Shown here piece by piece: positions 1 through 46,740 of a DNA stretch of 64,000 nucleotides. The stretch lies in contig NC_081387.1 of NCBI RefSeq assembly GCF_030684315.1, positions 21,818,647-21,882,646 on the forward strand. Reading direction: 5' to 3'. The notes below the pieces were generated by a model. It saw only the letters and a program-made list of their open reading frames with translations. It was not told the DNA's origin and did no database searches. Each line of letters opens with the position of its first letter. The first letter of the stretch is position 1. The DNA comes from Stegostoma tigrinum (taxonomy: Eukaryota). The position numbers were made by a program, and so were the translations under genes.

Positions 1-97
1 CTCAAGGATGTCCGAGTCTCTGACAGGGGACAGTACAAGTGCTTTGTGACATCTGCCATCAAACACAATGAGTTCAAACTCACGCTGGATGTGACAG
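1..97 (+). CDS. Gene 1 IgV exon, 3' part ([32 protein letters not shown])
   Basis: V-set DxGxYxC motif; donor GTCAGT at 98; homologous to the gene 2 IgV exon. Confidence 0.92.
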
Positions 98-12000: not shown

Positions 12001-13407
12001 TAAAAAGTGACACATTTTATAAAGTATTGGGGGAAGGTGCTAATCTGTTCAGCTATCTTTGGCATGGAGATGCAGCAAAAACTGTCAATCTTTGTTCTCA
12101 TAACCTGGTTATTCAGGGAGATGCCATGAAAGTGCAGCAAGGAGTATTTACCCCTCTCATCCTGCACTCCCCAAACCGCTCCCCGCACTTGCTTCACTCT
12201 CTAAAGCACTGAAAATCCTTCTCCCATACCCACTCTTTCTTCCATCCCTCCCCATTCTCCCGACTCCCACACTTCCTTCCGCCTTGCCTTCCTGACCTCA
12301 TACCCCAGTGCCCCTTCTTGTCTCTCTCACCCCTCCCCTGTTTCCCTTGAATTGAATTGAATTAGCCCTTTGTCACGTCCTCAAATGAGTAAAGTAAAAA
12401 GCCTGAGGTAACATTTTGGGTCGATTCAGTTCCGAGCAGGACCTGAGCTGTGAACTCTGACTTCTGACTTCTCTCCATAGATGCTGCCAGACCACCTGAG
12501 CTTTTCCAGCAATTTCTGTTTATAGCAGTGAAAAGTTTATACGTTTTCACTTAGTGTACCATCTTAGATGCAATCCTAACTTACAGAACAGGCAAATGAA
12601 GAAAAGTTACATTACAGCTATACAAAGTATAACCATAGGTCAGAAAAAAAGGCAAAGCTAATAAGACAAATATCCCAGTCAGTCCTGAAACACTCTCAGC
12701 AGCAGACCAGCGCTGGGGTTGCCTCCATCTGGTCTGACCACTTGCTGCCCCTGTTCTCGCACCGGGCCACTACCGTCCCTGCTCCTTCACTCCCCTCCGT
12801 TCCCCTCTCCCTCCCTCCCTCCCTCTCACTGACGGTGTTATTTGATCTCTCCCCAGCTCCAGCCTCTCTGACTCTGGACCCGAACACAGCGCATCCCCGG
12901 CTCATCCTGTCTGAGGACCGGACCAGTGTGAGACTCGGATACAAACGGCAGCTGCTCCCTGACTCCCCGGAGAGATTTGATCTCTGGCAATGTATCCTGG
13001 GATCAGAGGGATTCACATCAGGGAGTCATTACTGGGAGGTGGAGGTGGGGGAGAAGATTATGTGGATTCTGGGAGTGGTCCGGGAGTCTGTCAGGAGGAA
13101 AGGGTGGATCAACGCGGTGGAGGAGACCGGATTCTGGATTGTGGCGCTGAGGCTCCAAAAAGGTTATTTTGCCTCCACCTCCCCCTCATGGACTGACCTC
13201 TCCCTGCATGTGAATCCCCGGAAGATCGGGGTTTTCCTGGACTACGAGGGTGGACAGGTGTCATTTTACAACGCGGTCACCATGTCCCATCTCCACACTT
13301 TCACCCACACTTTCACTGACAGGATCTTTCCCTTCTTCAATCCGGGACGGAATATTGACGGGAATAACTCCGGCCCGCTGACAATCTGCGGGATTAAAGG
13401 ACACTGA
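1..13407 (+). CDS. Butyrophilin-like gene 1 (5'-partial): IgV(part)-IgC-TM-5 x 27-nt exons-B30.2; join 1-97,4525-4809,5651-5770,6063-6089,7607-7633,9889-9915,10191-10217,10533-10559,12857-13407
   Basis: All junctions are GT-AG and phase 1. The joined length is 1188 nt, one open frame ending in TGA. Domain motifs are typical of the BTN family. Confidence 0.9.
1560..3945. mobile_element. Old Penelope-like element pair in inverted (tails-out) arrangement: minus arm about 1560-2460, plus arm about 2470-3945
   Basis: Decayed RT/GIY-YIG peptides (LVYC..C...YTGET...RLG..FAEH) on both strands, with PLE tail motifs at both outer ends. Confidence 0.75.
4525..4809 (+). CDS. Gene 1 IgC exon
   Basis: [14 protein letters not shown]...YTC, the BTN IgC signature; 285 nt; acceptor TTGCAG, donor GTCAGT. 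Confidence 0.93.
5651..5770 (+). CDS. Gene 1 transmembrane exon ([40 protein letters not shown])
   Basis: BTN-like FFP motif, hydrophobic helix and basic stop-transfer; follows a long polypyrimidine tract; 120 nt. Confidence 0.9.
6063..6089 (+). CDS. Gene 1 27-nt microexon (GLRKSEDNL)
   Basis: TTTTCCAG / GTAAGT; homologous to 30904-30930. Confidence 0.85.
6430..7007. mobile_element. Probable solo LTR-like repeat (related copy at about 36065-37530)
   Basis: The two copies share sequence and both end in ...CCATAACA; classification uncertain. Confidence 0.4.
7607..7633 (+). CDS. Gene 1 27-nt microexon (ERQRLLDVT)
   Basis: TTACAG / GTGAGT; flanks homologous to 35099-35125. Confidence 0.85.
9889..9915 (+). 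CDS. Gene 1 27-nt microexon (ECEKLQQKL)
   Basis: CTCTTTAG / GTAAGA; homologous to 39528-39554. Confidence 0.85.
   Translation, partial: NVRNFSRS
10191..10217 (+). CDS. Gene 1 27-nt microexon (EQWRPLVQS)
   Basis: CCTTTTAG / GTATGT; encodes the same peptide as 45390-45416. Confidence 0.88.
10533..10559 (+). CDS. Gene 1 27-nt microexon (EWNRIQSYA)
   Basis: TTTGCAG / GTAAAA; homologous to 46677-46703; resembles the W-containing pre-B30.2 exon of BTNs. Confidence 0.88.
10860..11525 (+). mobile_element. Penelope-like element fragment (GIY-YIG and 3' end)
   Basis: Peptide [19 protein letters not shown]...YISET...; absent at the homologous position in gene 2 (about 47030). Confidence 0.85.
11680..11982 (+). 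mobile_element. SINE-like element sharing its 5' body and 3' tail with the LINE at 31160-34675
   Basis: Matches 31215-31425 and 34600-34675. Confidence 0.65.
12857..13407 (+). CDS. Gene 1 terminal exon, B30.2 (PRY-SPRY) domain
   Basis: [44 protein letters not shown] and PFFNP motifs; acceptor CCCCAG. Confidence 0.95.
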
Positions 13408-15395: not shown

Positions 15396-15401
15396 AATAA
15401 A
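15396..15401 (+). terminator. Candidate poly(A) signal of gene 1 (AATAAA)
   Basis: AATAAA followed by a U/GU-rich tract; alternatives at 15137 and inside the PLE at 13567. Confidence 0.4.
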
Positions 15402-17138: not shown

Positions 17139-17487
17139 CATTGCTTGACCTCCACTGGAGAACTTTATCTAATTCTGGGCACGGCTGTTTGAGAAGGATG
17201 TGAATGGTGCATTGAATAGTTTTGAGAATGCAACACTTTGTTTGGAAGATAGATTGGAGAGGTAAGTTATTCTCCTGAAGATAGAGAAAATTTTGAGCAG
17301 ATTTACAGTATTTGATCAAAATTATCAGGTGTCTGGAAAGAATGGAGAAAGAATGAGGCTGTTTGTTTTGACAGAATTATCCATCACAAGAACAGATGGA
17401 CTCGAAGTGATTGGCAAATTAATCACAGGATTAATTGAAGGACGTGGAAACTTTGGAGATAGTGCAGAGAAGATTCACCAGGATGTT

Positions 17488-20400: not shown

Positions 20401-20701
20401 CCCTTCATCCCACCTCAAGCCGCACCTCCATTTCCTACCTACTGACCTCATCCCGCCTCCTTGACCTGTCCATCTTTCCTGGACTGACCTATCCCCTCCC
20501 TACTTCCCCACCCATACTCTCCACTCTCCCTATCTTGTTTTCTCTCCATCTTTGGACCGCCTCCCCCTCTCTCCCTATTTATTCCAGTTCTCTCTCCCCA
20601 TCCCCCTCTCTGATGAAGGGTCTCGGCCGGAAATGTCAGCTTTTGTGCTCCTGGGATGCTGCTTGGCCTGCTGTGTTCATCCAGCTCCACACTTTGTTAT
20701 C
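17488..20701. mobile_element. 3.2-kb palindromic Penelope-like insertion (two arms of about 1.6 kb) inside a CR1 fragment
   Basis: RT (LRYIDA / LRYLDD, FLDL) and GIY-YIG ORFs on both strands; TSD TTCACCAGGATGTT at 17474-17487 and 20702-20715. Confidence 0.95.
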
Positions 20702-21119
20702 TTCACCAGGATGTTCCCTGGACTCCAGGGCATTGGCAATGAGGAAAAGTTAAAAAGACTAGGATTATTTTCACTGGAAAGATGATGGTTGAGAGGAGAC
20801 CTGACAGAGGTCTATAAAAGTATGAGAGGTATAGATAGGGTGATAGTCCAGAGGTTTCACCCCCCCTCCCCGTGTTGAAGTTTCAATCTCAAGGTGGCAG
20901 AGGTTCAAGGTGAGGGCAGAGCGAAAGTTTGAGGGAGATGTGCGAGGAAAGTTTTTCATGCAGAGAGAAAGTGATGGAAAGTAATTTGAGCGGGACTCCC
21001 GATGGGGCAGGAATTTGAACAAACATTTCAATATTGTAATGTGACAGAGGGTGCAGGAGGACTGGAGATAAACTGGCTAAAACTTAGCCAAAATTCTCTG
21101 CATTAGACACTCAAACGCG

Positions 21120-24649: not shown

Positions 24650-27600
24650 GTACATGTGGATGTTCCTACCCAAGTGTTGCTGTTCTAGTTGACTGCCTAA
24701 TGTGCCTGTTGATTGCTGACTCTCCCCAGTGTCTATGTTATTAATGTAAGTTCTCTGGTAATATTTTAGACAGCTACAATATTTTATTCCCTGGATCTGC
24801 TGATGCTGGATTTCTGAATTTACAGAATGTTTCTCCTGCTCCACATTCTCGTTTGGATCTATCATGGTAGGGAAATAAATTTGAAAGATAACAGAAACCT
24901 GTTTTCCCTTTCATATTTTGTTGTTGGGATCACTTGACAAGACATTGCACCCTGAACTAAAATTCCCTCTGTTTCTCACATTTTGTGTTTCTCTATTCCT
25001 CATTTCTATTTTTAGGCCCTCTGTCTCTAATCTCCATCTCCATACCTCGCTGTCCCTCTGCCTCCCCCTCTCTGCCCCTCTATCCCTCTCTGCCTGTCTC
25101 TCTGTTCCTCCCTCTCCATCTCTATCCCCTGCTACCTCTCTCTCTCTCGCTCCCTCTTTCTCAGTTAAAAACATTACTATATAGCTATAATAACCTGAGT
25201 GATGAGCAATGGATCTGATTCCCCCTCCAGTGGCTTTTACAGAAGCAGTGGTAGATTTTGCGGTGACAGGATCACTTGAACCCACAGTTGGGGTTTTCGG
25301 GAGCAACATTGTCCTGGAATGTCAATTGGTGCCAGCCAGAATCCCACAGAATTTGGAAGTTCGCTGGATCAATGTGGCATATGGCTACAACTCACCTGTC
25401 CACATGTACAAGGAGGGAGCGGATGATTTGACACACCAGCCGTCAGCCTACAGAGGCCGGACTGAACTATTTCTCGACAAAGTGGCAGAGGGGAATGTCT
25501 CCCTTAGGCTCAAGGATGTCCGAATCTCCGACAGGGGACAGTACAAGTGCTTTGTGGCATCTGATGAAAAACACGGGGAGTTTAAGCTCATGCTGAATGT
25601 GACAGGTTAGTGAACATTTTGGAAACACCCTATTTGACCTGCTCAGTGATGAGTTTGTTGAGATAAAGGACACTGACCTAGACCTTGATAGAATGCAAAC
25701 AGTTCGAGACTCCTACAGGATCAACACCGAGAGGCTGTTTCTGCTGACGGAGGAATCTAGAGCATGGGTGGACAGTCTCAGGACAAGGAAATGATCACGT
25801 AGCACTGAGACAGGGAGGAATTTCTTCAGCCTGAGGGTGTTTAACCTATGGGTCTCATTGCCGCAAAGGGCTGTGGAGGCCAAGTCACTAAGTGAATTTA
25901 AAACAGAGATTTATGGGTTCTTGACTGGCCAGGGGATCAAGGGTTATGGGGAGAAGGCAGTGAAACATATCAGCTATGATTAAATCGTCCAACAGACATG
26001 ATGGATCAAATGGCCTAAATTTGCTCATGTATCTTAGGGTCCAACACTTAGCCCGTAGACCTGTGTGCTTTGGCATTGCAAGTGTACATCTAAATATTTC
26101 TTACATGTTTTGAGGATTTCTGCCTCTACCACCCTTACAGAGTTCTGGGTTCCCACCACCCTCTGAGTGAAAACGTTTTTCCTCACATATCCTTGAAACC
26201 TCCTACCCCTTCCCTTAAATTGTGTCCGTGGGCCATTGATCACTCCACCAATGGAAAAAAAACCCAACATTCCTTCCTGCCTGCCTTGTCTTTGCTCCTC
26301 ATAATTTAGTGCATCTTCTAATCATTGTGTTTGGCCCCCTCTGTTATTGCCTCTGCTCGAAGGAAAGGCAGTCCAGTCTGTCCAATCTCTCTTCATAACT
26401 GAAACTCGTCAGCCCAGGCAACATTCTGGTAGTTCTGCTGTGCATTCTCTCCAGTGCAAAATGATATCCCTCCTATAACTTAGATTCCAGAAAGGCAAAC
26501 AGAATGTCTGAGTGGTTGTTTTGGATGTGGGGAATATAATTCTGCAGACTAAGTGACCCTATAAGAGAAAACATGTTTCTTCATCTCTGCCTTAACTGTA
26601 AAACCATGTACTTTTAACTAAAAGCAAGGTATTGTAGATGCTGGAAACCTGAAATAAAGACAGGAAGTGCTGGAGATATTCAACAGGCCTACCAGCATCC
26701 ATGGAGAGAGAAACCAAGTTAAGATTTCATGAGTAATATGGCTTTTCAAAGAGGGAAATATTCGGAGGATTCCATCCATTCTTCCCATCTGGGGTTGAGA
26801 CTTTACTTCTTTGAAACCTTGGTCTAGAGTTTTGGTCTTCAGCATAATTGCCAGTCCAGTCTTAACTTAGTCTTAAAAAAATTGTGTCTTTAGTTTGAGT
26901 TGAATTACTTAAGTTTCAGGAAAATCCATTTGTGATTTGTGAAACACTAAACAGCTCATGGGCACCTGCAAATATGTTTAGTCACTGAAATTTTGAACAG
27001 AGACTGGAGTCCACCTTCTGAGGTTATGTGCTTTTTATTGGAATGTTAGTGGTGTAGACTATTTTCTAAATGGGGAAAACGTTTGGAAATCTGAAGTACA
27101 AAGGACCATCGGTGTCCAAGTCAGGATTCTCTTAAAGTTAACATCCAAGTTCAACCGGCAGTTTGGAAGGCAAATGTAATGTTGGCATTCATTTCAAGAG
27201 GATTAGAATACAAGAGTAGAGATGTGCTGCTGAGGCTGAATATGGCTCTGCTCAGACCTTATTTCGAATATTGTATGGGGTTTTAGGCCCAATATCGAAG
27301 GAAGAATGTGCTGGCATTGGATGGGGCTCCAGAGGACGATATAATGATGACCATGGGGATGAAGAACTTTTCAAATGAGGAGCAGTTGAGGACCCTGGGT
27401 TTGTACTCGGTGAAGTTTGCAATGGTGAGGGTGGGGTTGATGTCTGATTGAAACTTACAGAATACTGACAGGCCTGGATAGAATTTCTACTTGTAGAGGA
27501 GAGTAGGACCCAAGGGCTCAGCCTCAGAGTGAAAGCATGACTGTTTAGAACTGAGACATGGAGGCATTTCTTCAGCCAGTGTGCGGTTAATCTGTGGAAC

Positions 27601-30600
27601 TCATTGTCACATAGGGATTTGGAGGCCACATCATTGAGTGCATTTAAAATAGAGATAGATAGACTCATAGGGAGATCAAAGATTATGGAGAGAAGACAAG
27701 AGAATGGGGTTGGGGAACATACCAGCCATGACTGAATGTAGTGCAGAGTCAATGGGCTGAATGACCTAATCCTGCTCCTAAATCTTATGATCTTTTGGAG
27801 TATTTCAGATTCAAATCTGATTGAAGTTACTTTGGAACAATGCCAGAGAACAATTTTCTGGTGCATGCAGGTCAGCTTCATAGTGAATTAAATGTTTCTG
27901 CAATATTTATGAGATTGTAAAAGGTCCTGTTCGAGAGTTTTAAAAAACAATGTTGATCCTGTAGCCTCTTTGAAGGCCCAAAAATGAGGGCCATTTGTAG
28001 AAATGTTGTCCTCATGAATAATTTGACTATGGGTCATTCCTGTCTGGACTGTCCCTCTCTCATCTCTCTGAGTGCGGTGTCTTCTGCCCTCCCCCAACTT
28101 CTTGCCCTGACAGATTGTGATCAAATTGTGGTTGCCCTCTAGAAAGTACAGGTCAGCTGCAATCTGACCGAGTGGTGTAAAGAGGCCAGGACAGGCCTTG
28201 CGGCCTACTCCCCTTCCTGATGTCTCTGTGATTGCAGGTACAGGCCGTCAGCCCACGATTGAGATGGAGGGCCAAACGGGGGATGGCATCAGACTGGGCT
28301 GCAGATCCAAAGGGTGGTACCCAGAGCCACCCGTGCTATGGACAGACGGAGATGGAGAGAACGTAGCAGCCCAGCAGCAAACCACGTACCAGCCGGACAC
28401 TCAGGAACTGCTCACGGTCAGCAGCTTCATCGAGATCCCCAAGCAGTCCACCAACAAGTACACTTGTGTCATTAATAACCTGATTCTGGAGGAGAAACAG
28501 GAGGCATACATCCGGATTGCAGGTCGGTCACAGTGGGAGAGGACCTTTACAGATACACAGCAAACTGGGGGAAAGGACGTGAATCTGATTGTAGAGAAAT
28601 ATATAAAATCCCGAGGAAACTCTGTGATTGAAACTGGCTCCTTGTGGCCCTGTTTAGCCAGAAGTGTCAAAGAGAGGCCCCTCATGGCTTTGGCTTGCCT
28701 CTTGTGGCAACAAAAGGCATTTCACAGGAGGGAGCGAGAGAGTGATGGAGTTTGAGGAAGAGTGTGAAGCTGCAATAGAGGGAGAAGGAGTAGATGTGAT
28801 GCAGGTTCAGGGGAGGGAGTGAGTGTGATAGAGGGAGAGGGTTGAACGGAGTTTTCTAAAAGGGAGAGATGTGATGAAGAGAGAGAGTGTGGGTGATGAG
28901 AGGAGAGGGAGATAGTGGAATGGAGGCTGGGAAGAGGAAGACGAGTAATGGAGGGTGAAGGGCTGATGAAGGGGGAGGGGTGATTGAATTTGGATACATA
29001 AAGGGCAAGGTCTTTTCCCCAGGGTAGAGCAGTCCAAAATCAGAGGGCATAGGTTTAAGGTGAGAGGGAAAATACTTAAATGGGACCCAAAGGGCAATGT
29101 TTCATGAGAGGATGATGCAAGTATGGAATGAGCTGTCAGAGGAGGTGGTGGAGGCTGGTACAATTACAATATTCAAAAGACATTTGGATGTGTCTATGTT
29201 TCCATGCTGTACATTTCTATGACTCCTTATCTTTCTAAAGGGTGTGACAATGGGTTTGTGTTAACTTAAACAGTTGAATGGTTCATTTTCTCACTCTTTC
29301 TCTCCTCACTGTCCACCTCTTCTTTCCCTCAAACCTGATCCCTCTCTCTCTCTCCTCTCCCTTCTCACCCTCTCATTCTTCCACCCCTCCATCTTGCCCC
29401 CTCTCCTCCTCAAACTCTTATTTTCTCTTTCTTTCTCTCTCTGTCTCTCTCCCTCATTCTCCATCCTTCCCCTCTCCTTCTTTCCTCCATGTTTATGCCT
29501 TCCCCCCTCTCACTGTCCAATTTGTCTCTCCCTCTCTTGTCACTTCCTGCTCTGTCTCCCTTCTCTCTCTCTCCATCTTGCTTACTCCCTCTTCCCCCCA
29601 CTTTCCCTCACAAGCTTCTCCCCTTCTTTTCCTCCTCCCTCTCATTCCCTCTCTCTTCCCCCACTCTCCCTAACACCCACATAATCTTTTCCCTCTCCCT
29701 CTCCTTCTCCCACTCTCTCTCCTCTCTGTGTCCCTCTCTTTCCGCTCCCCCCTCCCCCCGCTGCTTCCTTGCCTTCCTCTCTCTCCCTTCCCTTTCTCTC
29801 CACACAGATTCCTTCTTCCCACATGTTTCCGGATGGCAGATATGATTCTGGATCCTGTTTGTTCTGATTGTTGGAGTCATCGCTGTCGCAGTGTGGTACC
29901 TTCGGAAATTACAGAATGAGATTCATGGTGACAACCTCTGCTCAAACACTGACTACTTTTCTTTAAGAATAGAATACTGTGTACAATTCTGGTCACCCTT
30001 CTGTAGGATGGATGCTGTTAAACTTAAGAGGTTCCAGAAAGGATTTACAAAGATGTTGCCACGACCGGAGGGTTCAAATTATAGGGAGAGGCTGAATATG
30101 CTGGGACGTTTTACCCTGCAGTGTCAGTGGCAGGGGCCATCTTATAGGAGCTTATAAAATCGTGAGGGAAACGGATAGTGTGAATAGCTAAGGTTTTTTT
30201 CTGAGGGTGGGGGAGTCCAAAATTAGAGGCCATTGGTTTAAGGTGAGACGGTAAAGATTTGAAAGGGACCCAAGGGGTAAATTTTTCACACAGAGGGTGG
30301 TGCATGTATGGAATGAGCTGCCAGAGGAAGTGGTAGAGACTGGTACAATTACAACATTTAAAAGGCATCTGGATGGGTACATGAGTAGGAAGAGCTTAGA
30401 GGGAGGAGCAAATTACAGCAGATGCTGGAATTTGTACTGAAAACAAAAAGTGCTGGAGATCAGGCAGATCACAGCGGGTCAGGCAGCATCCATGGAGAGA
30501 AAGCAAGCTAACATTTTGAGTCTAGATGACGCTTCATCAGATTATCATCATTTAGATATGATGATAAATGGGACTAGGTCAGATTGGGATGTATGGTCAG

Positions 30601-33600
30601 TATGGACGAGTTGGACTGAAGGGTTTGTTTTTCAGCTGTATGACTGTGATGAATCTATAAAAATCCATAAACAGAAACTAATAATTTGTTAACACAAATT
30701 AAAACGGACAGTGCTGGAAATATTCCACAGATCAGGCAGAATCTGTGAAGAGAGAGACCAAGTTAATATTTGAGGGGAAATAAGGATTTATTTTTAGTGA
30801 GGTGTGTAATGAGGAACCTGTTCAAGACAGTGTGATACTGACACCATCTCCAGAGGTCATGATGCCCATTGAGTTCATTCATTTATTTGGTTTTCTTTTC
30901 TAGGCCTCAGGGAATCTAAAGATTTGCATGGTAAGTGATGTTTTTTCAGTCTGTGGGACGTGCTGATATTACATTGACTCTCGCTGCTGAGGAATTTCAC
31001 ACTTTCACCCTGACCTTTACAGTTTCTGCCTTGAGAGGGGCCAGACCTCTCCTATATGTTACTGACCACAACATTCTCAGGAGGCTGCCTGTGTCAGTTC
31101 CTAATCCTACCCTCAATTTATCTTGTCAGGGCATTCTATGTGGATAAATTCCTACCTGTAGGGGGTGGGTGATGACCTAGTGGTATTGTTGCTAGACTGT
31201 CACAACCAGCTCATGTTCTGGAGACCCGGGTTCGCATCCCACCACAGCAGATGGTGGAATTTGAATTCAATAAATTAAAAAAATAAGTCTGGAATTAAGA
31301 ATCTACTAAACACCGTGAAATCAATGATTGTGGAAAAACCCATGTGGTTCACCAACGCCCTTCAGGAAAGGAAATCTGCCACCATCATGTGGTCTGGCCT
31401 ACATGTGACTCCAGACTCACAATTGCTTTGTGAAATGGCCTAGCAAGCCATTCATCATAGAATCCCTACAATGTGGAAACAGGCCCTTTGCCCCAAAAAG
31501 GCCACACTGACCCTCAGAGCATCTCATCCAGACCCAACCCCTATCACCCACCTAAGCTACACATCCCTGAACACTACAGGCAATTTAGCATGGTCAATCC
31601 ACCTGCCCTACACATCTTTGGACTGTGGGAAGAAACTGGAGCACACCCACGCAGACAGTGGGAGAATGTGCAAACCGCACACAGATGATTACCTGAGAGT
31701 AGAATTGAACCCAGCTCCCTGGCGCTATGAGGCAGCAACTGTAACCACTGTGCCACCTTGGTACCCCATTCAGTTTTGCCAATCACTACAAAGTTTTAAA
31801 GAAATTAAATTGGGCCGATCACCTGATATCGACCTAGACACCGGAAAAGACAATGGCAGAAACAGCCCTCTCGATCCTGCAAAATCTTCTTTGCCAACAT
31901 CTGGGGGTTAGTGCCAAAACTGGGAGAGTTGTCTCCAAAACTAGTTAAATAACAGCTTGACATAGTCGTACTCACAGATTCGTACCTTAGAGACAACATT
32001 GCAGATACTACCATCACCAGCCCTGATTATGTCCTGTTCCATCTGCAGGACAGACCCAGCAGAGGTGGTAGCACAGTGGTTAGTGTTACTGGTTAGTCGG
32101 GTGGACATTGCTTTTGGAGTCCTCAACATTGACTCTGGACCCCATGAAGTCTGATGGCTTCGGGTTAAACATGGGCGAGAAAACCTCCTGCTCATTACCA
32201 CGTAGCTCCCTTGGTTGATAAATTGGTGCTCCTTCATACCGAATAAGTCTTAGATGAAGGACTGAGGCTGGCAAGGGCACAAAATGTACTCTGGGTGGGG
32301 GATTTCAATGTCCACCACCAAGAGTGGCTCGGCAACAGTACTACTGATTGAACAGGTTGGGTTTGAAAGGACATAGCTACTAGTCTGTGTCAGCGGCATA
32401 CTTTACCTCATCCCTACTAATCTGCCAGCCGCAGTCCATCTGTTTATGACAGTTTTGTAAGAGTGACCATTGCACAGATCTTATGGAGACAAAGTCCCAC
32501 CTTCACATTGAGAATAACCTCCATCGTGTTATGTGGCACCATCACCATGCTAAATGGGACAGACTTTTCATAGATCTAGCAACTCAAAGCTGGGCATCCA
32601 TGAGGCGCTGAGCCATCAACAGCAGCAGAATTGTACTCCAGCACAATCTGTAACCTCATGGCCCGGTATATCTCCCACTCAACCAATACCATCAAGCCAG
32701 GGGATCAACACTGGTTCAGTGGAGGGTGCAGGAGGGCATGACAGGAGCAGCACTAGGCATACCTGAAGATGCAATATCAATCTGGTGAAGCCACCAAACA
32801 GGACTACTTGCATGCTAAACAATGAAAGCAGCAAGTGATAGACAGAGCGAAGTGATCCCACAACCAACGGATTGACCTAAGCTCTGCAGTCTTGCCACAT
32901 CCCATCGTGAATGGTGGTGGACAATTTAACAACTCACTGAAGGTGGGGGCTCCACAAATATCCCCATGCTCAATGATGGAGGAGCCTGGCTCATCAGTGC
33001 AAAAGATAAGGCTGAAGCATTCACAGCAATTTTTAGCCAGAAGTAGCAAGTGGATGATCCATCTCAGCCGTCTACAGTGGTCCCCAGCATTACAGATACC
33101 AGAGTTCAACCAATTTTATTCAGTCCACATGATATCAAGAAACGGTTGGAGACAGGATACTGCAAAGGATACAGTCCCTGGCAACATTCCGGCAATAGTA
33201 CTGAACGTTTGTGCCCTAGAACTTGTCATTCCCCTAGCCAAACTGTTCCAGTACAGTTACAACACTGGTATCTTCCCAACAATGTGGAAATTTATCCAAG
33301 TATGTTCTGAACACAAAAAGCAGGACAAATCCAACATAGCCAATTACTGTCCCATCAATCTACTTTCAATAACCAGTAAAGTGATGAAAGGTGTCATTAA
33401 CAGCGCTATCAAGCAAAACCTGCCCAGTTTGGGTTCCTCCAGGGCCACAGATCCTGACCTCATTACATCCTTGGTTCAAGCTTGGATAGAAGAGCTGAAT
33501 TCCAGAGGTGAGGTGGGAGTGACAGCCCTTGATATCAAGGGTGATTTTGACTGAGTGTGGTATCAAGGAACCCTAGTAAAACTGTAATCAGTGGGTATCG

Positions 33601-36600
33601 GGGACAAAATCTTCAGTGGTTACAGTCATACCTGACACATAGGAAGATGGTTGCAGTCATTGGAGGTCAATCATCTCAGCTCCAGGACATCTCTGCAGGA
33701 GTTCCTCAGGGTAGTGTCCTTGGCCTAACCATTTTCAACTGATTCATCAATGACCTTCCCACCATCACCAGGTCAGAGGTAGGGATGTTCACTGATGATT
33801 GCACAATATACAGCACCATTCGTGACTCCTCAAACACTGAAGCAGCCCATGTTCAAATGCAACAAGATCTGGATAATACTCAGGCTTGGGCTGACAAGTA
33901 GCAAGTGATATTCGCACAACAGAAATGCCAGTCTATAATCATCACCAATAAGAGACAATCTAACCACTGTCCCTTGACATTCAATGATGTTACCATCACT
34001 GAATCCCCTACTATCATCATCCTGGGTGTTATCATTGACCACAGACTCAACTGGACTTGCTGCACAAACACAGTGGTTAGAAGAGCAGGTCAGAACCTAG
34101 GAATACTGTGGTGAGTAACTCACCTCCTGACTCCTCAAAGCCTGTCCACCATCACAAAGCACAAGTCAGGAGTGGGAAGGAATACTCCTCACTTGCCCCT
34201 GGATGAGTGCAGCCCCAATAACACTGAAGAACCTTGACACTATCCAGGACAAAGCAACCCGCTGGAATTTCACTACATCCACAAGCAACCACATACTCCA
34301 CCACTAATGCTCAGAAACAGCAGTGTATACTGTCTACAAGATGCACTGCAGAAATGCACCAAAGATCCTCAGACAGCACCTTCCAAACCCACAACCACTT
34401 CCATCCAGAAGGACAAGGGCAGCAGATATATGGCTACACCACCACCTCAAGTTTCCCTCCAGCCACTCACCATCCTGACTTGGAAATATATCGCCGCTCC
34501 TTCACTGTTGCTGGGTCAAAATCCTGGAATTCCCTCCTGAATGGCATTGTGGGACAACTCACAGAAGGAGATTCAAGAAGGCAGCTCACCACCAGCTTCT
34601 CAAGGGCAACTAGGGATGGACAAGAAATGCTGGCCAGCCAGTGATACCCATATCCCATAAATGAATAGAAAAAAAACATGCAACCCCATGCTCCAAGACT
34701 CTCTATCCCTTTCTGTCTCTTCCACTCTCACAACTCCCTCTCTTTTGCCCCCCTTGCTGCCCCTTCCACCCTCTCTTTCGCCCCTCTTTCCTCCCCCTTC
34801 CCCCCATCTCTTTCCGTCACATCTGTTTTTCCCCACCTATCTCTTCTCCCCTTCCCACACTTCTTCCCTCCTTTTCCCTTTCTCCCCCCTCTCTCTTCCA
34901 TCCTCCCTCTGCCCCTTCTTCTCCTCCTCCATCCCTCCTCCTGCTTTCTCCCTCCTCCTCCTCTCTCCCTCTGATCTTACAGTGTGAGAGTGGGCAATGT
35001 GATCTAGGTGATGTATGCTGCAATGGGAATGGGACAGGGTTCAGTATGAGAGGTGAAGGGCTGTTGCTGATTTAATGTTTTCTTTTGATCTGTTACAGAA
35101 TATCTAAAGCTGATGGAAGAAGTCAGTGAGTAACCATTCAAAGCAGAGACTTAAACCTGATGGGTGTGGGAAACCCAGTGATGTGGACATATCATCACAT
35201 CTGGGTGAAGAACATTTGTGAAACTGTAATCCCAGGTCTGGTGATGTAATGGATTACAAATAGATTGGCTTTGAAGGTCTCCATGGCATGAATGATAAGA
35301 AAGATTTGCATTTCTATGACAGCTTTCACATTCTGAGGATATCCCAAAGTTCTTTATTGAAAGTGATGTACATAACAATACAAGGACTGGGAGCAAGAGT
35401 TAGCCTCTTGACCTGAGCTGTTTCACTGTTCAGTCTGACCATGATGAATCTACTTCCCTGCACTATCCCATGTAAAGACTCTATCATTTTATTTTTCTGT
35501 ATTTTGGATCGATGAGGTAAAGAATTCTTAAGATTCATAACCCTTTGAGTGCGTATATTCTCTTCATCACAGACTGAATGGGAAAGATGGGTTTCAGAAT
35601 GGCCAGTGAGTTAGCTTTGAGAATCTAAGGAGACTGTCAATATAGTGCAATATTATAATGGTCAGTTTCTGTCTGTTGCAAAGGTGAACTCTATGTCATG
35701 GGTGAACTAAGGTTCCATCATGAACTTCTGGTATCAAGTCACAATCCATGACTTGGCACAAAGCTGTTGCTGACACTTCAGCACATAGCTGAGGGAGTGC
35801 TACGCTGTCAGAGGCACTGTCTTTTACGTCAGACTTTTAATGCAAGACATCACATGCTTTTGAATGTTTCGTAGCTCTTAGATGTATCCCTAGGAGGAAC
35901 AGAGAACTTCTTCCCAGAGTCTGAGTCAATATTTACCACTCACAAGAATCTGTTGATTTGGTAATTGTCCTGGTTACTGTTTGTGGAATCTTGCTGTGCA
36001 CAGATTAGTTGCTGCAGAAGGAAACAGTACAGAAGAGGCCTTTCAGTCCATCTGTTCTGTTTCCTTTGTGATCATATATGCTTTTGAGAGGGATTTGGTT
36101 TGTCTTGGTTCTTCTCAGGTAGGACTGTTGTAAATCTGGTGACAGGGTGTCTACTCCTGTAAAGCAGAGGAAGTAGCTATGAGATTATTGTTATATTATA
36201 TTAGGCAAAAGAAGCATGAATGTGTGGAGAGAGACAATGGGAACTGCAGATGCTGGAGAATCCAAGATAACAATGTGTGAAGCTGGATGAACACAGGGAC
36301 AGGGATGAGCTGGGCTGGTTTTGGGATGCAGTGGTATCCACTGTACCCAGTGTGGCTTCCTCTACATTGGGGAAACCAAGCGGAGGCTTGGGGACCGCTT
36401 TGCAGAATACTTCCACTCGGTTCGCAATAAACAACTGCACCTCCCAGTCGCAAACCATTTTAACTCCCCCTCCCATTCCTTAGACGATATGTTCATCATG
36501 GGCCTCCTGCAGTGCCACAATGATGCCACCCGAAGGTTGCAGGAACAGCAACTCATATTCCACTTGGGAACCCTGCAGTCTAATGGTTTCAATGTGGACT

Positions 36601-39600
36601 TCACAATCTTCAAAATGTCCTCTTCCCCCACCGCATCCCAAAACCAGCCCAGCTCGTCCCCTCCCCCCACCGCATCCCAAAACCAGCCCAGCTTGTTCCC
36701 GCCTCCCTAATCTGTTCTTCCTCTCACCTATCCCCTGCTCCCACCTCAAGCCACACCTCCATTTCCTTCCTACTAACTTCATCCCGCCTCCTTGACCTGT
36801 CCGTCTTACCTGGACTGACCTATCCCCTCCCTATCTCCCCACCTATACTCTCCTCTCCGCCTATCTTCTCTCCCTCTTCGGTCCGCCTCCCCCTCTCTCC
36901 CTATTTATTTCAGAACCTCTCCCCATCCCCCTCTCTGATGAAGGGTCTAGGCCTGAAATGTCAGCTTTTGTGCTCCTGAGATGCTGCTTGTCCTGCTGTG
37001 TTCATCCAGTTTCACATTTTGTTGTCATGAATGTGTGGAGTCAGGCTCACAGAGACCAAGGGTTATAGTCTTAGTTTTGCTTTCACTTGTTGAAGTTGGG
37101 TTTTGGAATGAAGCTGCTATATACAGTCTCTCTCTTTAGCGCTGCAAATGCTTGAGTTTTTTCTCTGCTGCTAGATTCATTCTGTCGGTGCTCCTTCTCC
37201 TGGACTGGAGGACATAGCAAGTGAGGGAAATCTGTTTTACTGAACGTGCCTTTGCAAAGGGTGTGTTTATGGGGCACTGCCATATTAGAACATTTGATGA
37301 GTTGTAGTGAAATGATATATTATTTTACTAAGCCTTTTAGGACAATTATTCTTTGTTTGTATTTTAGCTGTTGTAAAGGAATAAAGTGTGTTTAGCTTAA
37401 AGCCTAGTAATTTGAACAATCAAATCACATCTTCAAAGTAGTGCCTTACCTTGCCTTGAAATAAGTTAAAAATTAAGGTCTGTGCTATCTCTTTGATATA
37501 TTTGAGGGGGTTTGCGTCTGGTCCATAACACATTAATTTGACAGTACTGTTTCTACAAGACACTGGAGGACACACTGTCACTGTTATTTAAATCCAAATT
37601 AATCCTCCGTATTTCTCACATTGATTTTTTTTAAACTTTCAGAGCAAGATAAAATGAAGACAGATAAAGGTAAGTGATCAGAAACCCAGGGGTGGTGGAG
37701 ATGGTTCCATTAAGACCCTGATTGTGTGTCTGTGTGTCCGCGCAGTTCACAGCACATCCAAGACTCGGGTCAATTTCAAACAGAGATAACAAATGGTCAT
37801 TTGATTTGTCATCTCTCTGAGGTGTTTTCACTTTTTTTTTGTAGAGTATATAAGACTTCACCAGGAGATTGGTAAGAACCCGAAACCAATTGGATAAAGG
37901 TGATGGAAGAGAGGGAGTTGTGGATGGATTAACCCCACAGTAAGAGAATGGGAAAGCGCTGGGAAAGCTGGATGGTAACTCTGACTGAGACCAGACCCTA
38001 GTAGGAGAGAAGCAGTTTTGGAACAACGTGGAACTCATGCAGATCCTCCAATGGGTTTGCCGTAACATGGGTGATGGGTGACGGAGTGGGTTTGTGCTTC
38101 TGTCATTCTGGGATTAAGAGTAAGACAAGAGTTGACCTGGTTACTATCAACTCTGAATCACATTGTTGTTTGTTTTTCATTTCAGAGATGGCTAAGCAAA
38201 AAGGGAAACAAGGTGAGTTATGAGAACACACATTATTTGGATTGTAATGTTTTATTTCAGTGTCAGAATGTCTGAACACAATTTAACAGATTTGTAAAAA
38301 AAACTGCCTTATCACAGATTGTTCCATTAAAACCAGCACCAAATTATAATGCCTTCCTGTGAATATGTGTGAAGTGGGTGAGCTAATTCAGCCAATTCTT
38401 CAACGTTCACCGATATCAGAACTGGGGTCCTCGAGAAGCTGTTTTTCCAGGAATTTCCTGAGCTGATATAAACAGATCTGCGGATATCTGGAAATACATG
38501 CCTGTTGAAATGAGCAGGTTTCAATATCAACAGCCTTTAGCTATTTATTAATAGTGCAATGAGACCACTAGCTTCACCAATCCCTAAAGTGCTCGCTGAT
38601 CAAAACCGTCAGATATGTGATTCAACAAATCATATGTCTTTTTTTTATTTGGGCATGTGTTTGTGAATCAGTCGTTGATTTCACAATTGATTCTCTTCAC
38701 AGTTCTACAAATAACCAAATAAAGTAACATCTACCATATTTCAGTATTTTCTAGTTATTTCTAATCTTCGACATTCTGATGTGAGGAATACAAACCTCAC
38801 TACAGCAGGAGAACAATGCATTCCTGACAATACACAAATTCATCTAATTCTACACACCCTGACTGGGTTCTGACATTTTAACCTGTAAACTTGTGGCCAT
38901 CCAACACTCTGCTGCCCTTGTCTTCACTCATCCTAAGTTCCACTCACCTGCTTACTGACCCACATTAGCTCCTCATTAAACAGTGTCTCCATTCCTAATT
39001 TCTCAGTCAAGTCTTGCAGTCCCTTCATGTCCTTGCCCTCTCTACTCTGCAACTCTGAGGTTCCTGTGCTCCTTTAATTGTGGCCTTTTGCACGCCAAAA
39101 ATTGTAATGTCCCTTCATTGGAGAATGTAATTTCAGTTGCCTCAGTTCCAAACTCTCCTCCTGCATCCTCATCTCACTTTCATCCTTAAAACACATCATA
39201 AAAACGTCCCTGTTTGATAAGCTTTTAGTTACCTGACATGTTTTTATTTATAATATTTGTAGTATTTTGAGATGTTGTTGAAGAAAAACAGCCACTTTGT
39301 GAATGTAAATTGTTGTTGTGTAAAATCCGTGCAGTGTATTACCTGACAAGTGAGCAATGTCACACAAGGAGCATTCCTATAACAATTTCTATTAACTGCT
39401 TTTTTTTTCTAAACTATATTGTCTTTCAAAAAATCTCTGATTGGGAAATGAATTTCAGATTTTCAGTGACTTTTTTGATATAATCAATGATCTGGTTTTA
39501 AATTGCCTTGTCTGTTTTTCTCTTCAGAATGTAAGATGCTTCAGCAGGAGTTTGGTAAGAGATTATTTCCAAATCATAAACACTCTGGGATTGGGTTTTC

Positions 39601-42600
39601 AACTCGTGTTCAGCACTGGTTTCTTCACTAGCCTCACATGGTCATTAAAAGCTAAAAGCATTGTGGAGGACAAGTTTGTTTCTGGTGCTATCAACTTACA
39701 TGGGTTTGTTGTTGCTGGATGTATCTAGGGGTATTTGATGGGAAGAGCATAGCGAGCATCTTTATTCTATATCTAGCCCATGCTGTACATGTCCTGAGAG
39801 TTATATGATGGGACAGTGTAGAAGGATAAGGCTTACTCTGTTTCTGACCTGGGAGTGTTTGACAGGGACACTGCAGACAGAGCTTTACTCTGATTACAAC
39901 CCTGCAGTTTACCTGACCTGGCCGTGTGTGATGGGATAATATAGGGGGAGCTTCACTCTCTGTATAGTCCATGCTATATACCTGTGAATATTTCATGAGA
40001 CAATGTGAAAGAATGTGTTTTTCACTGTATCTAACTTGTGCTGCACCTGTCCTGACAATGTCTGATAGGGACAGTGTTGGGGGAGTTTAGCGCTGTCCTG
40101 TCCTGGGTCTCCTGACACTGCTAATGTTTTAATTTTGTGCCCTGACTCTCAGCCTCAGACTCGCACACAGTTAGTGTATTATTTTGGTAAGGTTAATGAT
40201 AGACACAATGATGATATGTGCTACCTGAGACACTCTTGCTTGCCAGGACAGTATTGAGTTAACCAATTAGCTCTTGCTGCCCTTTCCCTTTGAGGGAGTG
40301 GTGGGCATGGGGATGGGGAAACGTTGGATAACATGGTTCTCTGCGGAATTAAGGTTCCACACTGACATTCCTGGCAGGGACGGGACAGAACAGTGGGTGG
40401 TGGAATGGATAATCTCATCGCTGACCCATGCCGGGTGAGGGGAGACCCGAACAGTGTTCACACAAAGTGGTGACTCCTTCTGGAAGCTTCTATGCTTTAA
40501 TATCTCTGTTTCTTTATCCTTTTACAGAAAAGGAGAAGGCCACCATTTATGCAGGTAAGCAGAGGGCTGAGGAATGGGAGTGTCTTCTGGAGCAGATGTG
40601 TTCCGAATTCTGATTTGATGCACTCCTGAAGGTTTCAGCATGTGACCTTTTGCCTCCAATTCCTTTTAACCAATCAAAGAGGGCTTCTCTATCCCCAACT
40701 TTGTTTTAGGAGTTCAAAAGCATTCAAATAATCCACACAATGTATAATGTCTGTGAGCTCCCATTCTTGGGCATTGGTCACTGTGACAAAGATTTTGGCC
40801 AGTCATTTCTGGAGAGTTGTTTCCCTATGGCAGGGAAGGATGGGCAGTGAAGATCTGTTTATATTTCAAATATTTAACTTCTGGGTTAATGCCTTCTGGT
40901 CACTTCCCTACTCTGGAGGGAAATGAGACAGAGTCATAGAGATGTACAGCATGGAAACAGACCTTTCGGGCCAACTCGTCCACGCTGACCAGATATTCTA
41001 AATGAATCTAGTCCAATTTGCCGGCATTTGGCCCATATCACTCTAAACTCTTCCTACTTATATACCCTAAATTTTGTAATTGTACCAGCCTCCACCACTT
41101 CTTCTGGCAGTCCATTGCATACAGTCAGCACCTTCTGTGCAACAGAATTGCCCCTTTTAAATCTTTCCACTGTCGTCATAAACCTATGCCTTCTAGTTTT
41201 GGACTCCCCTACCCTGGGAAAACATCTTGGCCATTTACCCTTTCCATGTCCTTCATGATTATATAAACTTTTATAAGGTCACCCCTCAGCGTCTGACACT
41301 CCAGGGAAAATAACCCCAACCTCTTCAGTGTCCCCCAATAGCTCAAACCCTCCAACCCTGGTAACATCTTTGTGAATCTTTTCTGTACCCTTTCAAATGT
41401 CACATCATCCTTCCTATAGCAGAAACTCTTCACTCCCCAGCTAACACCAATGTTGGCCTGACCCAATGGTGACCCTGGCATTTGGGTAGATGATTCCTAA
41501 TGTAGGTGAGGGCTTGCTGTATGGGTACAGCTGGCACAGAGAGCACTACCCACTGCTCCAGCTTGTGGAGGTTGGTGCTACCGCTGGCCGCTGCTGGTCT
41601 CTCACAGACCGAGTGAGACCAGCTGGTGGAGACTGAGCTCAAAGCAGAGAGTTCAATATAGAGTGCAGAGGGCAACAAAGAATACGAGATGAAGAAGATG
41701 GGGACATTGTGAAATTAAGGTTTGTAACTGATATTTCTCCCTTGTCTGTTACAGAACATGTGCAGTTCAGGAAAGAAGTTGGTAAGTGGCTATATCGAAT
41801 TTTAAATGTTCATCGATGGTCACTTCGAACAAAATGCATATTTGCTGTGGCTGTTTCTCAGTCTGTGCTTGGACAGGGGATTGTTTTCTCAGTCTGTACT
41901 CAGACTGGGGGCTGTTTCTCAGTCTGTGCTTGGACAGGGGATTGTTTTCTCAGTCTGTACTCAGACTGGGGGCTGTTTCTCAGTCTGTGCTTGGACAGGG
42001 GATTGTTTTCTTAGTCTGTACTCAGACTGGGGGCTGTTTCTCAGTCTGTGCTTGGACAGGGGATTGTTTTCTCAGTCTGTACTCAGACTGGGGGCTGTTT
42101 CTCAGTCTGTGCTTGGACAGGGGATTGTTTTCTTAGTCTGTACTCAGACTGGGGGCTGTTTTTCAGTCTGTGCTTGGACAGGGGATTGTTTTCTCAGTCT
42201 GTACTCAGACTGGGGGCTGTTTCTCAGTCTGTGCTTGGACAGGGGATTGTTTTCTCAGTCTGTACTCAGACTGGGGGCTGTTTCTCAGTCTGTGCTTGGA
42301 CAGGGGATTGTTTTCTCAGTCTGTACTCAGACTGGGGGCTGTTTCTCAGTCTGTGCTTGGACAGGGGATTGTTTTCTCAGTCTGTGCTCAGACTGGGGGC
42401 TGTTTCTCAGTCTGTGCTTGGACAGGGGATTGTTTTCTCAGTCTGTGCTCAGACTGGGGGCTGTTTCTCAGTCTGTGCTTGGACAGGGGATTGTTTTCTC
42501 AGTCTGTACTCAGACTGGGGGCTGTTTCTCAGTCTGTGCTTGGACAGGGGATTGTTTTCTCAGTCTGTACTCAGACTGGGGGCTGTTTCTCAGTCTGTGC

Positions 42601-45600
42601 TTGGACAGGGGACTGTTTTCTCAGTCTGTACTCAGACTGGGGGCTGTTTCTCAGTCTGTACTCAGACTGGGGGTTGCTTCTCAGTCTGTGCTCAGACTGG
42701 GGGCTGTTTCTCAGTCTGTGCTCAGACTGGGGGCTGTTTCTCAGTCTGTACTCAGACTGGGGGCTGTTTCTCAGTCTATGCTCAGACTGGGGGTTGTTTC
42801 TCAGTCTACGCTCAGACTGGGGGCTGTTTCTCGGGCTGTTTCTCAGTCTGTGCTCAGACTGGGGACTGTTTCTCAGTCTGTGCTCAGACTGGGGGCTGTT
42901 TCTCAGTCTGTACTCAGACTGGGGGCTGTTTCTCAGTCTGTACTCAGACTGGGGGTTGCTTCTCAGTCTGTGCTCAGACTGGGGGCTGTTTCTCAGTCTG
43001 TACTCAGACTGGGGGCTGTTTCTCAGTCTGTACTCAGACTGGGGGCTGTTTCTCAGTCTACGCTCAGACTGGGGGCTGTTTCTCAGTCTGTGCTCAGACT
43101 GGGGGCTGTTTCTCAGTCTATGCTCAGGCTGGGGGCTGTTTCTCAGTCTACGCTCAGACTGGGGGCTGTTTCTCAGTCTGTGCTCAGACTGGGGGCTGTT
43201 TCGCAGTCTGTGCTCAGACTGGGGGCTGTTTCTCAGTCTGTGCTCAGACTGGGGGCTGTTTCTCAGTCTATGCTCAGGCTGGGGGCTGTTTCTCAGTCTA
43301 TGCTCAGGCTGGGGGCTGTTTCTCGGTCTATGCTCGGCCTGGGCCACTTTGTCAGTCTGTGTTTGGGTTGGGGACTGTTTTCTCGGCCTGTGTTTGGGCT
43401 GGGGAGCTGTTTCTCAATCAAATTATCAGTGTTGAGGAGCACACAGTTTAGCCTTGCTTTACCCTTTTCACCAGCACTGTATAAAGTCTCAGCTGGTTTC
43501 TTGTTCCATGTTGTTGCTAAGCTCTTGACTCTGTTTTACAGATGAAGCGAGGGAGTCAGACAAAGCAGGTATGTGACTGTGTGGGCCTTGAGGAGTAAAC
43601 TTAACCTCTGCACTGGGATGGGGAGGGGACTGTGATGGTGTATGCTCTGACAGAGAACAGGTAGAGACACAGCAAATGCTTCTCTCTTCACTAATTTTTA
43701 TTTTCAGTCTCTCAGTCACACTCTCTTTTTGTGTTTTTTCTCGCCTTCCTCTCCCATTCTCACGCTGTGCTCCTCAGCATCTCTTCCTCTCTCTCTCTGC
43801 TCTTAATGCTCCCCATATCCGTTCTTTCTTTCTCTTTTTTATTCCTTCTCTTTCTGTTTCTTCTGATCTCCTTCTTTGCCCTCGCTTCCTCTTCTCATTC
43901 TACTCATATCTCTCCAGATCCCTCTCTCTTCTCCTCCTAGTCATGTCTCTCCATTTCTCCACTTTGTTCATTCCGTCTTCCTCTTCCTATATTCTGTCTT
44001 CTCAAATCTCTCTCTCTCTGTATTCCTTGTCCACTTAACTCTGCCTGTCTGACTTACTCTGTCTGCCTGTCTATGTCGCTCTTGCTGTCTCTCCCCATCT
44101 ATCTCTCTCGCTCTCTCTCTCCGTCAGTCTCTTACCTTGTGCAAAATGCTTGGTTAGTGATTTAAAACAGAAAGTGCTGAAGAAAGTCAGCAGGTCTGGG
44201 AGCATCAGTTGAGAGAGAAAAACAGAGTTATAGTTTGTTTCAAATCAACATCATTATCTTTGGACTATCATTTGTAAATCACTTGGTAAAGTGTTAGAAG
44301 ATAGTATATGAACACAGGTCAGTTAATTTCCATTTGAAGTCAGCATTTGGAAATGTCTGTTGATATTGACATTTTTACATGTTGGTAAGATAGTATAGTC
44401 GGTTGTTTATAAAATCATTCATTTTGTTTGAAGATGTTAGCTTTCTTGCTGTAATATTTCTGATCATTCCTTACTTGCAGATTACCGGAAGCTACTCACT
44501 AAATTTGGTGAGTTAGTTGTCATTAAAATTTTGGCTTCGTCTTCAGCTTGGCTACAGTTAGTAAATGAACATAAAACCAGGTTCTGGTCTGGACCATTCT
44601 TTTCCTCACTCGAGGAGAACAAGCTTGGAATGACTGGTTACCCTCCAGATGTTGCAATCAACCTGTCTCCTGATATACATTCATAGACAGAGCTGCAGAC
44701 TTTCATGACAGTATGAACATCTAGAGATCACCATGGCTTCAAATGGTGGCTTTGTAAAAAATGACCTGAGCATTGGACCCCTCGTTTTAAGCTAAAATTA
44801 TAGAGTTTGAAATAATTCAAACTCTAGATCCACTTCAAATTGATCATGTGGGATTCTCCGCGTCCCAGTTCATGATCATGGATTGGATTTTTAATTTGCA
44901 TCAGGGTGGCAAGGCTAGCTTTTTTAAAATGATTCTGGCCAATGGGTCCAATCTCCATCTCTTCATGTTTCATTCTAGATGGAAACTCAGGCAATTCTAT
45001 AGCAGGTGGCTAATCCTCGAGTGCTTCATGGAACATATACTCTTACACATTCTTTAACAAATATCTACATATCAACAGATTTGAAGTGGGGAACTTCTGA
45101 AACTCACTCCACGGTGCCACTAGTTGGCTAGATGTTGATGTTGGAAAATAGAATGGGAACTGCTGGCATCGGTATTTACAATGTTGATCAGAAATGCTGC
45201 CCAGAGGTCAGGACATCACACCCTCGCAAGATTTTTCTTAACAATGCATCAGTTATTGCTGCCGTAACGTTAAAAAATGTGACTTTTATTCATTAAGAAA
45301 ACTCTGGCATGAAAAGAAAATTTGTTGATAATGCGAAATCTGTTGAGTGGGTTTTATTCACACTTATTCATTTCACTATTTCCTTTTAGAGCAATGGAGG
45401 CCTCTGGTCCAGTCAGGTATGTTCCCTGTATGAACACACTTGAAAAAAGAAATCTTCACTTGTTATTTCTATCAATGATTTGGATGTGAATATTGGAGGT
45501 ACGCTTAGTAAGTTTGCAGACGATACTTGATGGTATAGTGGACAGTGAAGAAGGTTACCTCAAAGTACAACGGGACCTTGAACTGATGGACTGAGGAGTG

Positions 45601-46740
45601 GCAGATGAAGTTTAATTTAGATAAATGTGAGGTGCTGTATTTTGGAAAGGGAAATCAGGGCAGGATTTTTAAAATTAATGGGACAGTCCTAAGGGGGTGT
45701 TGTTGAACAAGGAAACCTCCAAGTACAGGTCTATAGTTCCTTGAAAGTGGTGTTGCAGGTGGACAGGATAATGAAGAAGGCATTTGATATACTTGCCTTT
45801 ATTGGTCAGTGCATTGAGTATAGGAGGTGGGAGGTCACGTTGTGGCCATACAGGACACTGGTGAGGCCACTTTTGGAATACCGTGTTCAGTTCTAGTCTC
45901 CCTGATATAGGGAGGATGTTCTGGAAGTGGGAAGGGTTCAGAAAAGTTTTTCAAGGATGTTGCCAGGATTGGAGGGTTTGAGCTATAGGAAGAGGCTGAA
46001 TAGGCTGGGGCTGTCTTTCCCTGGAGTGTTGGAGGCTGAGGAGTGACATCATAGAATTTTATAGAATCATGAGGAGCATGGATAGGGTGAATAGCCAAGA
46101 TGTTTTCTACAGGGTAAGGGAGTCCAAAACTAGAGGGCATAGGCTTAAGAGAGGGGAAAGAATTCAAAGGGACATAAGGGGCAACTTTTTCACACAGAGG
46201 GTGATCTGTCTATGGAATGAGCTGCCAGAGGAAGTAGATGGAGGCTGGTACAATTACGACATTTAAAAGACAGCTGGATGGATATGTAATCAGAGATATG
46301 GGCCAAAAGCTGGCCAATGAGACTACATTAATTCAGCATATTTGTTTGGTCTGGACGAGTTGGGTTAAAGGGTCTGTTTCTGTCCTGTACAGCTGTATGA
46401 CTTGAAGGAATCTATTAGCATATGTGTATTGTTTGATGTTTGACCAGGATAATGTTGAAAAAAATAGAATAAGGGGGTGTGAAGATCAAAATTATGTTAA
46501 TCGCTACTTTTACTTAATTTAGTCCAAGGGTTTTGTGTTTGTGTGTCTTTGCCCGTTACTACCCATTATGGCTCAATCTCACATTTTTGGTTTACTGAAA
46601 ACCACAATGTACTTTGGCTGTTGTCTTATTTGAGAGTTTTACAGATTATTAATTGCAGATGTTACTGTTTCTGCAGAGTGGAACAGGATACGGAGCCATG
46701 CAGGTAAGATTCTCAATGTATAGGACTGCCCAAACCAGGA

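Follow-up and report, generated by a model that had tools for sequence, protein, structure and literature searches.

The mammalian butyrophilins BTN1A1, BTN2A and BTN3A are described as type I receptors in which short repeat exons lie between the transmembrane (TM) segment and the B30.2 domain (PMC6790196), and the same exon and domain plan is found in gene 2, a butyrophilin-type gene of the zebra shark (Stegostoma tigrinum) located in the 64,000-nt stretch of DNA analyzed here (the window). Unlike the mammalian genes, gene 2 has twelve 27-nt exons in this position and carries a stop codon before the TM segment. Orthology of gene 2 to any mammalian BTN would be putative at most; mouse BTN2A2 fell outside the clade of gene 2 B30.2 domains, on a long branch.

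Two members of the family provide close points of comparison. SKINT1L was inactivated by a stop codon in hominoids (PMC5960712), and BTN3A3Like is reported to be a transcribed pseudogene in the macaque (PMC6790196). Gene 2 resembles both as a family member disabled in one lineage, whose transcript may persist. As these sources describe them, however, SKINT1L and BTN3A3Like have an early stop in IgV or several lesions, whereas gene 2 has a single stop that follows a complete ectodomain. The soluble isoforms of BTN3A likewise consist of an Ig ectodomain free of a membrane anchor (PMC6790196). These are reported to be alternatively spliced products that coexist with a membrane form, whereas anchor loss in gene 2 is genomic and constitutive and its transcript has the features of a target of nonsense-mediated decay (NMD). 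No earlier description of the zebra-shark gene was evident among the listed papers on butyrophilin with sharks, cartilaginous fish or Stegostoma tigrinum, a literature covered at the level of listings and with few of its subscription papers.

Exon plan of gene 2 and its gene cluster

The gene 2 model, which was built from a splice-site scan and alignment to orthologues, comprises 17 coding exons and 553 codons on the forward strand, with GT..AG at all introns and one internal stop after residue 245. Its domains are ordered as signal, IgV, IgC, TM, twelve 27-nt exons and B30.2. The first coding exon (24827..24866) encodes the start of the signal peptide from an ATG at 24827 and ends in a GT donor; it matches the signal exon of gene 1, the upstream paralogue, at 85% and gave the best BLOSUM match to the N-terminus of the Hemiscyllium orthologue. 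The IgV exon (25231..25605, AG/GT sites) retains Cys44 and Cys120 and scores above the Pfam cut-off for V-set. The IgC exon (28238..28522), which is joined to the TM exon in a contig from sequencing run X14, retains Cys160 and Cys215 and scores above the cut-off for C2-set_3, so that the signal, IgV and IgC of a butyrophilin ectodomain are all present with four cysteines. The TM exon (29808..29927) is 120 nt long and of phase 1-1, just as a preliminary description of this DNA had it, and has GT..AG joints on both sides in the X14 contig. Within it lies the premature TGA (codon 246, 29843..29845), which is documented by the genome, by contigs and by comparison with relatives. An open frame through the single TM helix is consequently a butyrophilin feature that gene 2 lacks, both in the genome and in the spliced contig.

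Beyond the stop, the twelve 27-nt exons (30904..46703) are of the heptad type expected of a coiled coil and are all in frame with AG/GT sites in the splice scan; they start at 30904, 35099, 37643, 37845, 38186, 39528, 40528, 41755, 43542, 44481, 45390 and 46677. The B30.2 (PRY-SPRY) exon (49995..50512) is open and scores above the Pfam cut-offs for PRY and SPRY, which completes a butyrophilin tail of heptad-type short exons and a PRY-SPRY exon. The preliminary description had stated that 12 downstream exons keep their frame and splice sites; frame and sites are indeed kept, in what are actually 13 exons, the twelve of 27 nt and B30.2. Another 27-nt candidate at 44979 was dropped, having no counterpart in orthologues or in P0128 (XP_048375760.2, 266 aa). 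This database protein is identical to residues 288-553 of the gene 2 model, and public annotation therefore retains the post-stop frame only. Neither a full-length nor a 245-aa zebra-shark gene 2 protein was among the matches of word-limited protein searches. When the zebra-shark genome was searched with the TM exon DNA, the only two matches were gene 2 and gene 1 (exon 5651-5770, 85.6% over 118 nt), and no other full-length close copy of the gene 2 B30.2 exon was found in this genome (G000).

Gene 1 (1..13407, forward strand; P0006) is intact, encodes 499 aa and has its start about 1.1 kb upstream of the window, which contains the end of its IgV, its IgC, its TM exon (5651-5770), five 27-nt exons and a B30.2 type of its own. 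The IgC exons of gene 1 (4525-4809) and gene 2 (28238-28522) are near-identical and their IgV exons only about 66% so, a pattern suggestive of repeated gene conversion in the dimerisation domain. The B30.2 of gene 1 (12858-13407) belongs to a different clade, though its Ig and TM exons are of the gene 2 lineage. Among the rows examined this B30.2 type occurs in carpet sharks only, and it suggests a domain swap. The TM exon of gene 1 also contains a fairly strong in-frame internal acceptor (5720), and the Hemiscyllium model P0007 loses most of the TM helix via the equivalent acceptor; a soluble isoform of gene 1 made through this site is possible.

Loss and truncation are common in the cluster of gene 2. 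A search with IgC gave 34 matches, 27 of them on the contig of gene 2. About 110 kb downstream are an IgC exon with a frameshift and a TAA (G000:C44:21961675-21961961, + strand) and a B30.2 exon of the gene 1 type with a stop (21964994-21965551, - strand). An open gene-1-type B30.2 exon, 83% identical to that of gene 1, lies at 21932130-21932687 (+ strand); the preceding 50 kb yielded no Ig exon, and it may be part of a TRIM-like gene or an orphan. Gene 3 (P0004/P0146, 22125362-22139425) has IgV, IgC, TM and a short tail and is annotated without B30.2, but 42 codons left over from a B30.2 of the gene 2 type lie behind it; its overall plan recalls BTN3A2. The window is also rich in repeats, with many copies of one interspersed family at 13400-21000 and 52500-61800, a 3.2-kb inverted repeat arrangement (17527-20703, 94% identity) in the interval separating gene 1 from gene 2, a hairpin at about 52650-52768, and a 30/61-nt minisatellite of about 1.5 kb (41849-43416) in the intron between heptad exons 41755 and 43542.

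The stop codon in zebra sharks and their relatives

At the stop, gene 2 reads TGG CAG ATA TGA TTC TGG and gene 1 TGG CTG ATA GCG TTC TGG, exactly as first described. Contigs were compared from 8 of the 24 listed runs, leaving out X3 and X4 (same sample as X1) and the bisulfite runs X21-X23. The TGA at 29843 was recovered in all three same-species runs that cover it. The DNA-type runs X1 (sample S1) and X2 (S2) each gave one 758-nt contig over 29160-29917 with no other letters, and X14 (S6), from a separate study, gave a 453-nt spliced contig with no other letters in the TM exon. In the X14 contig the TM exon is spliced to the IgC exon on one side and to the 30904 exon on the other, both across GT..AG, and 213 further letters follow it. 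X24 gave only a gene-1-like IgC contig, with no contig over the TM exon. An assembly error was ruled out by the TGA contigs of X1, X2 and X14, which come from two studies. X14 and X16 were classed as RNA-type from spliced joints or exon-to-exon ends, no run being recorded as RNA, and their contig depths (228-350 in X14; 63 vs 152 in X16) cannot rank genes by expression. The TGA is therefore real and transcribed.

Variants around the stop differ among samples. A synonymous T>C at 28485 was present in X1, X2 and X14, while gene 1 carries the base of the window, and over 28445-29057 X2 differs from the window at five positions and X1 at one. More than one local haplotype (at least two are distinguishable) therefore carries the TGA. 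It is very improbable that the stop still segregates with a common sense allele, or is an artefact. Contigs merge single-base bubbles and drop rare variants, which could hide heterozygosity in X1 or X2, and the runs represent at most three further individuals; however, no other letter was found over the codon in any of the three covering runs from two studies, and the sense allele of a heterozygote would be expected to win in RNA.

The relatives of gene 2 define the lineage in which the codon was lost. Thirteen shark and ray B30.2 rows, gene 2 included, formed a clade supported at 100/100 that was separate from the gene 1 type. The whale-shark orthologue is the second half of a fused Rhincodon typus model, P0143 (XP_048472628.1), which is 89% identical to gene 2 over 540 residues and has the same exon count. 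It shares the Gln before the stop site and differs from gene 2 by Thr at 246 (Gln-Ile-Thr at the site), by an intact PERF motif and by its full length. Contigs from organism B contained two TM exon variants in three of four runs and one variant in X11 (81% read). By hand-reading of the codons, one has Leu and GCA and the other the Gln of gene 2 with ACG at the stop position, and the two match the two halves of P0143. Among 13 relatives spanning the region, codon 246 is a sense codon (Ala, Val, Thr or Gly, mostly Ala) in 12, and the thirteenth, a fused Scyliorhinus canicula model (P0018), contains no TM exon. P0130, which begins past TM, was excluded from this count; it is a C-terminal protein of 215 aa from Pristiophorus, of the gene 2 lineage, and the gaps in P0130 and P0018 could be annotation gaps or independent breaks.

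Among the species compared, the TGA is specific to the zebra shark. A disabling lesion absent from orthologues and common to several individuals is one mark of a transcribed pseudogene, and gene 2 has such a lesion. The preliminary description had proposed a fresh null allele as one explanation; a young and species-specific change was borne out, and a rare private allele or error was not, the stop being in the window and in every covering run. The TGA is three bases away from the ACG of the whale shark and from the GCG of gene 1, and two from GCA. Reaching it would have needed a multi-base mutation or several steps, with stepwise sense intermediates possible.

Fate of the transcript and its products

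A transcript is generally exposed to NMD when its last exon junction lies over about 50-55 nt downstream of the stop. The stop of gene 2 lies 406 nt upstream of the last junction, with 13 exon junctions downstream of it, and the transcript is a predicted NMD target as had been proposed. Intronic polyadenylation could offer an escape, but the introns flanking the TM exon contain no AATAAA and a single ATTAAA (30698). X14 had no cover over 28534-28917 or just past the TM donor, which is weak evidence in the same direction.

Alternative splicing could offer another. A minor or tissue-specific isoform might avoid the stop, either with the TM exon skipped or through an internal acceptor at 29877 or 29892, yielding an Ig-Ig-stalk-B30.2 protein that lacks a full TM, a proposal that we consider very unlikely to hold. 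Skipping is indeed in frame, as previously noted, and would give 513 aa with no internal stop; the two AGs past the stop are in frame as well, the corresponding internal acceptor is used in P0007, the Hemiscyllium model of gene 1, and macaque BTN3A transcripts are reported to skip the TM (PMC6790196). However, the sole X14 contig over the TM exon includes it, and the weak GTGACA donor earlier read as a skipping signal is the donor of intact gene 1, which together undercut the exon-skip isoform first suggested. Of 663 joints, 15 were open to direct inspection, but the four X14 depth bins that run from the end of IgC through each half of the TM exon into the following exon (194.7/173.3/116.3/66.5) are explained exactly by that one contig; X14, a single RNA-type sample from which rare forms are dropped, therefore contains no skipped or internal-acceptor contig, nor was an intronic form found in it. 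On a crude matrix the internal acceptor of gene 2 scored only 2.0, against 7.8 for its gene 1 equivalent and 12.9 for the main acceptor.

Recoding of the UGA by readthrough, selenocysteine insertion or A-to-I editing to Trp, which would restore a full-length membrane protein, is the least probable of the explanations considered. UGA is the leakiest stop, everything downstream is intact, and the column of codon 246 tolerates A, V, T and G. A favorable readthrough motif is TGA-CTAG, but the stop context here is TGA-T and the mRNA 3' of it is unstructured (z +0.6 to +1.4). There was no match to the Rfam SECIS family in 28000-56000, nor in 50500-51950 at E up to 10. Loose SECIS core patterns numbered 3 against 1.6 by chance, a count reached by 22% of shuffles, and the best of them, at 50838, has a stem of only 7 bp. 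X14 has no edited base, and UGA occurs in no relative. Recoding was rejected because nothing exceeded chance and the UGA codon is not conserved.

The locus could also have been split, with a cytosolic coiled-coil-B30.2 protein of 266 aa being produced from an ATG located 123 nt past the stop, by re-initiation or an internal promoter. In favor of such a split, P0128 begins at this in-frame ATG and corresponds exactly to residues 288-553, the B30.2 branch measures 0.042 in the zebra shark and 0.033 in the whale shark, and a cytosolic tail product, the 'zipper protein', is reported for chicken BG (PMC4046983). P0128 is however an automatic model, three out-of-frame ATGs come ahead of its start, R418W alters an invariant PRY residue, and a young stop accounts for the intact frame. 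Re-initiation past an open reading frame of 245 codons is inefficient. We consider the split very improbable.

The remaining alternative concerns the product upstream of the stop. The stop may have made gene 2 a constitutively secreted IgV-IgC protein, whose mRNA would tolerate the 13 downstream junctions. Such a protein could pair with the gene 1 product through its near-identical IgC, or occupy the receptor to which the ancestral membrane form bound, and so serve as a soluble decoy or modulator. This reading is the main rival of the one we favor, with a chance of about one in four. The precursor is of 245 aa in our model, not of 257 aa as originally given. All four Ig cysteines are intact, there is no free cysteine, both N-glycan sites are kept, and no hydrophobic segment is left beyond the signal, where the best window of 19 residues reaches a hydropathy of 1.17 against 2.82 in the TM. 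The best argument for a secreted form is that the stop falls exactly at the boundary between ectodomain and TM; only about 17 of the 553 codons (about 3%, by hand count) would yield a complete IgC and no anchor, which also counts against a plain pseudogene. This argument is weakened by ascertainment, since the scan selects such cases. A spliced transcript bearing the stop is present, the allele is on at least two local haplotypes, and precedents are found in the IgC-dependent pairing of BTN3A1 with BTN3A2 (PMC5798315) and in soluble BTN3A (PMC6790196). Yet the soluble BTN3A forms of that report arise by in-frame exon skipping and not by a stop, the 13 downstream junctions make the transcript an NMD target for which no poly(A) escape was found, and the IgC of gene 2 has changes of its own, H229Y and Q231R, at positions where the relatives do not vary. 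The claimed IgC identity of about 95% to gene 1 holds (94.7% in protein, with 14 of 285 nt differing), but it does not speak for a decoy function because the likeness predates the stop, the whale-shark IgC pair being identical in protein.

Age of the stop and significance of the probable loss

Compared at the protein level, substitution showed no significant excess on either side of the stop. Upstream of the stop, polarised amino-acid changes numbered 10 on the zebra-shark branch and 6 on the whale-shark branch in 232 sites (2 unpolarised), and downstream 23 and 11 in 307 sites (8 unpolarised), the two regions not differing significantly (Fisher p 0.76); B30.2 alone had 8 and 5 changes in 172 sites. 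Intact gene 1 had 30 and 17 (16 unpolarised), and the zebra-shark excess is therefore a lineage effect that does not demonstrate release from selection. The preliminary description had taken two changes as possible signs of decay. L-to-Q cannot be one, since Gln occurs also in the whale shark and Hemitrygon. The change of PERF to PEWF in the PRY domain is present and specific to the zebra shark, but change downstream of the stop is not significantly raised and does not demonstrate decay; this R418W and D420E affect residues that are invariant in all seven relatives compared (whale shark and six outgroups).

No second lesion was found in the 13 exons downstream of the stop. Had these exons been neutral along the whole zebra-shark branch, 4.9-11.5 further lesions would be expected, with 0.5-0.64 as the zebra-shark share and frameshifts assumed at 0.07 per substitution, for a zebra and whale shark pair with dS of 0.061-0.111 and about 50 My (PMC13100897). 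These assumptions probably place the origin of the stop within the last 13-30 My or so; dropping the indel assumption, the age bound becomes 0.44-1.0 of the branch, which at the low rate is no bound. The intact downstream exons fit what a young stop predicts and are therefore not evidence of function.

We favor, with a probability of roughly 55%, the reading that gene 2 carries a recent nonsense allele, common or fixed, and is a transcribed, NMD-prone pseudogene. In this old elasmobranch gene the stop would have arisen near the end of the zebra-shark branch, leaving little time for more lesions to accumulate, on an allele that became common or fixed. Gene 2 is transcribed with the TM exon spliced in and the frame closed at codon 246, and most of the stop-bearing mRNA would be thinned by NMD. 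Whatever is translated would enter the ER via the signal peptide, fold as IgV-IgC and leave with no anchor, at a level for which selection has no use. Stalk and B30.2 exons alike would go untranslated, with a drift that may have just begun (R418W, D420E). We favor this reading because the stop is shared by all three covering runs, no rescue isoform was seen and 12 of 13 relatives have a sense codon, and also because R418W and D420E hit invariant residues, genes turn over locally and the family offers precedents. Counting against it, stop-bearing mRNA is plentiful enough in X14 to be the one path that assembles, there is neither an excess of change nor a free cysteine in the Ig domains, and a lineage that sharks and rays have retained as a single copy would have been lost with no spare copy in the genome.

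As a pseudogene, gene 2 would be a recent gene loss of an ordinary kind in an immune cluster with rapid turnover. The loss would be notable only in that other sharks and rays conserve the gene and that the whale shark provides a near-identical intact control, while the public 266-aa B30.2-only model conceals a break of one codon. If instead the fragment is secreted and used, gene 2 would be a genomically fixed soluble butyrophilin. It would then provide a natural test of whether a BTN ectodomain is able to act without the B30.2 sensor, and would test as well how strict NMD is in cartilaginous fish.
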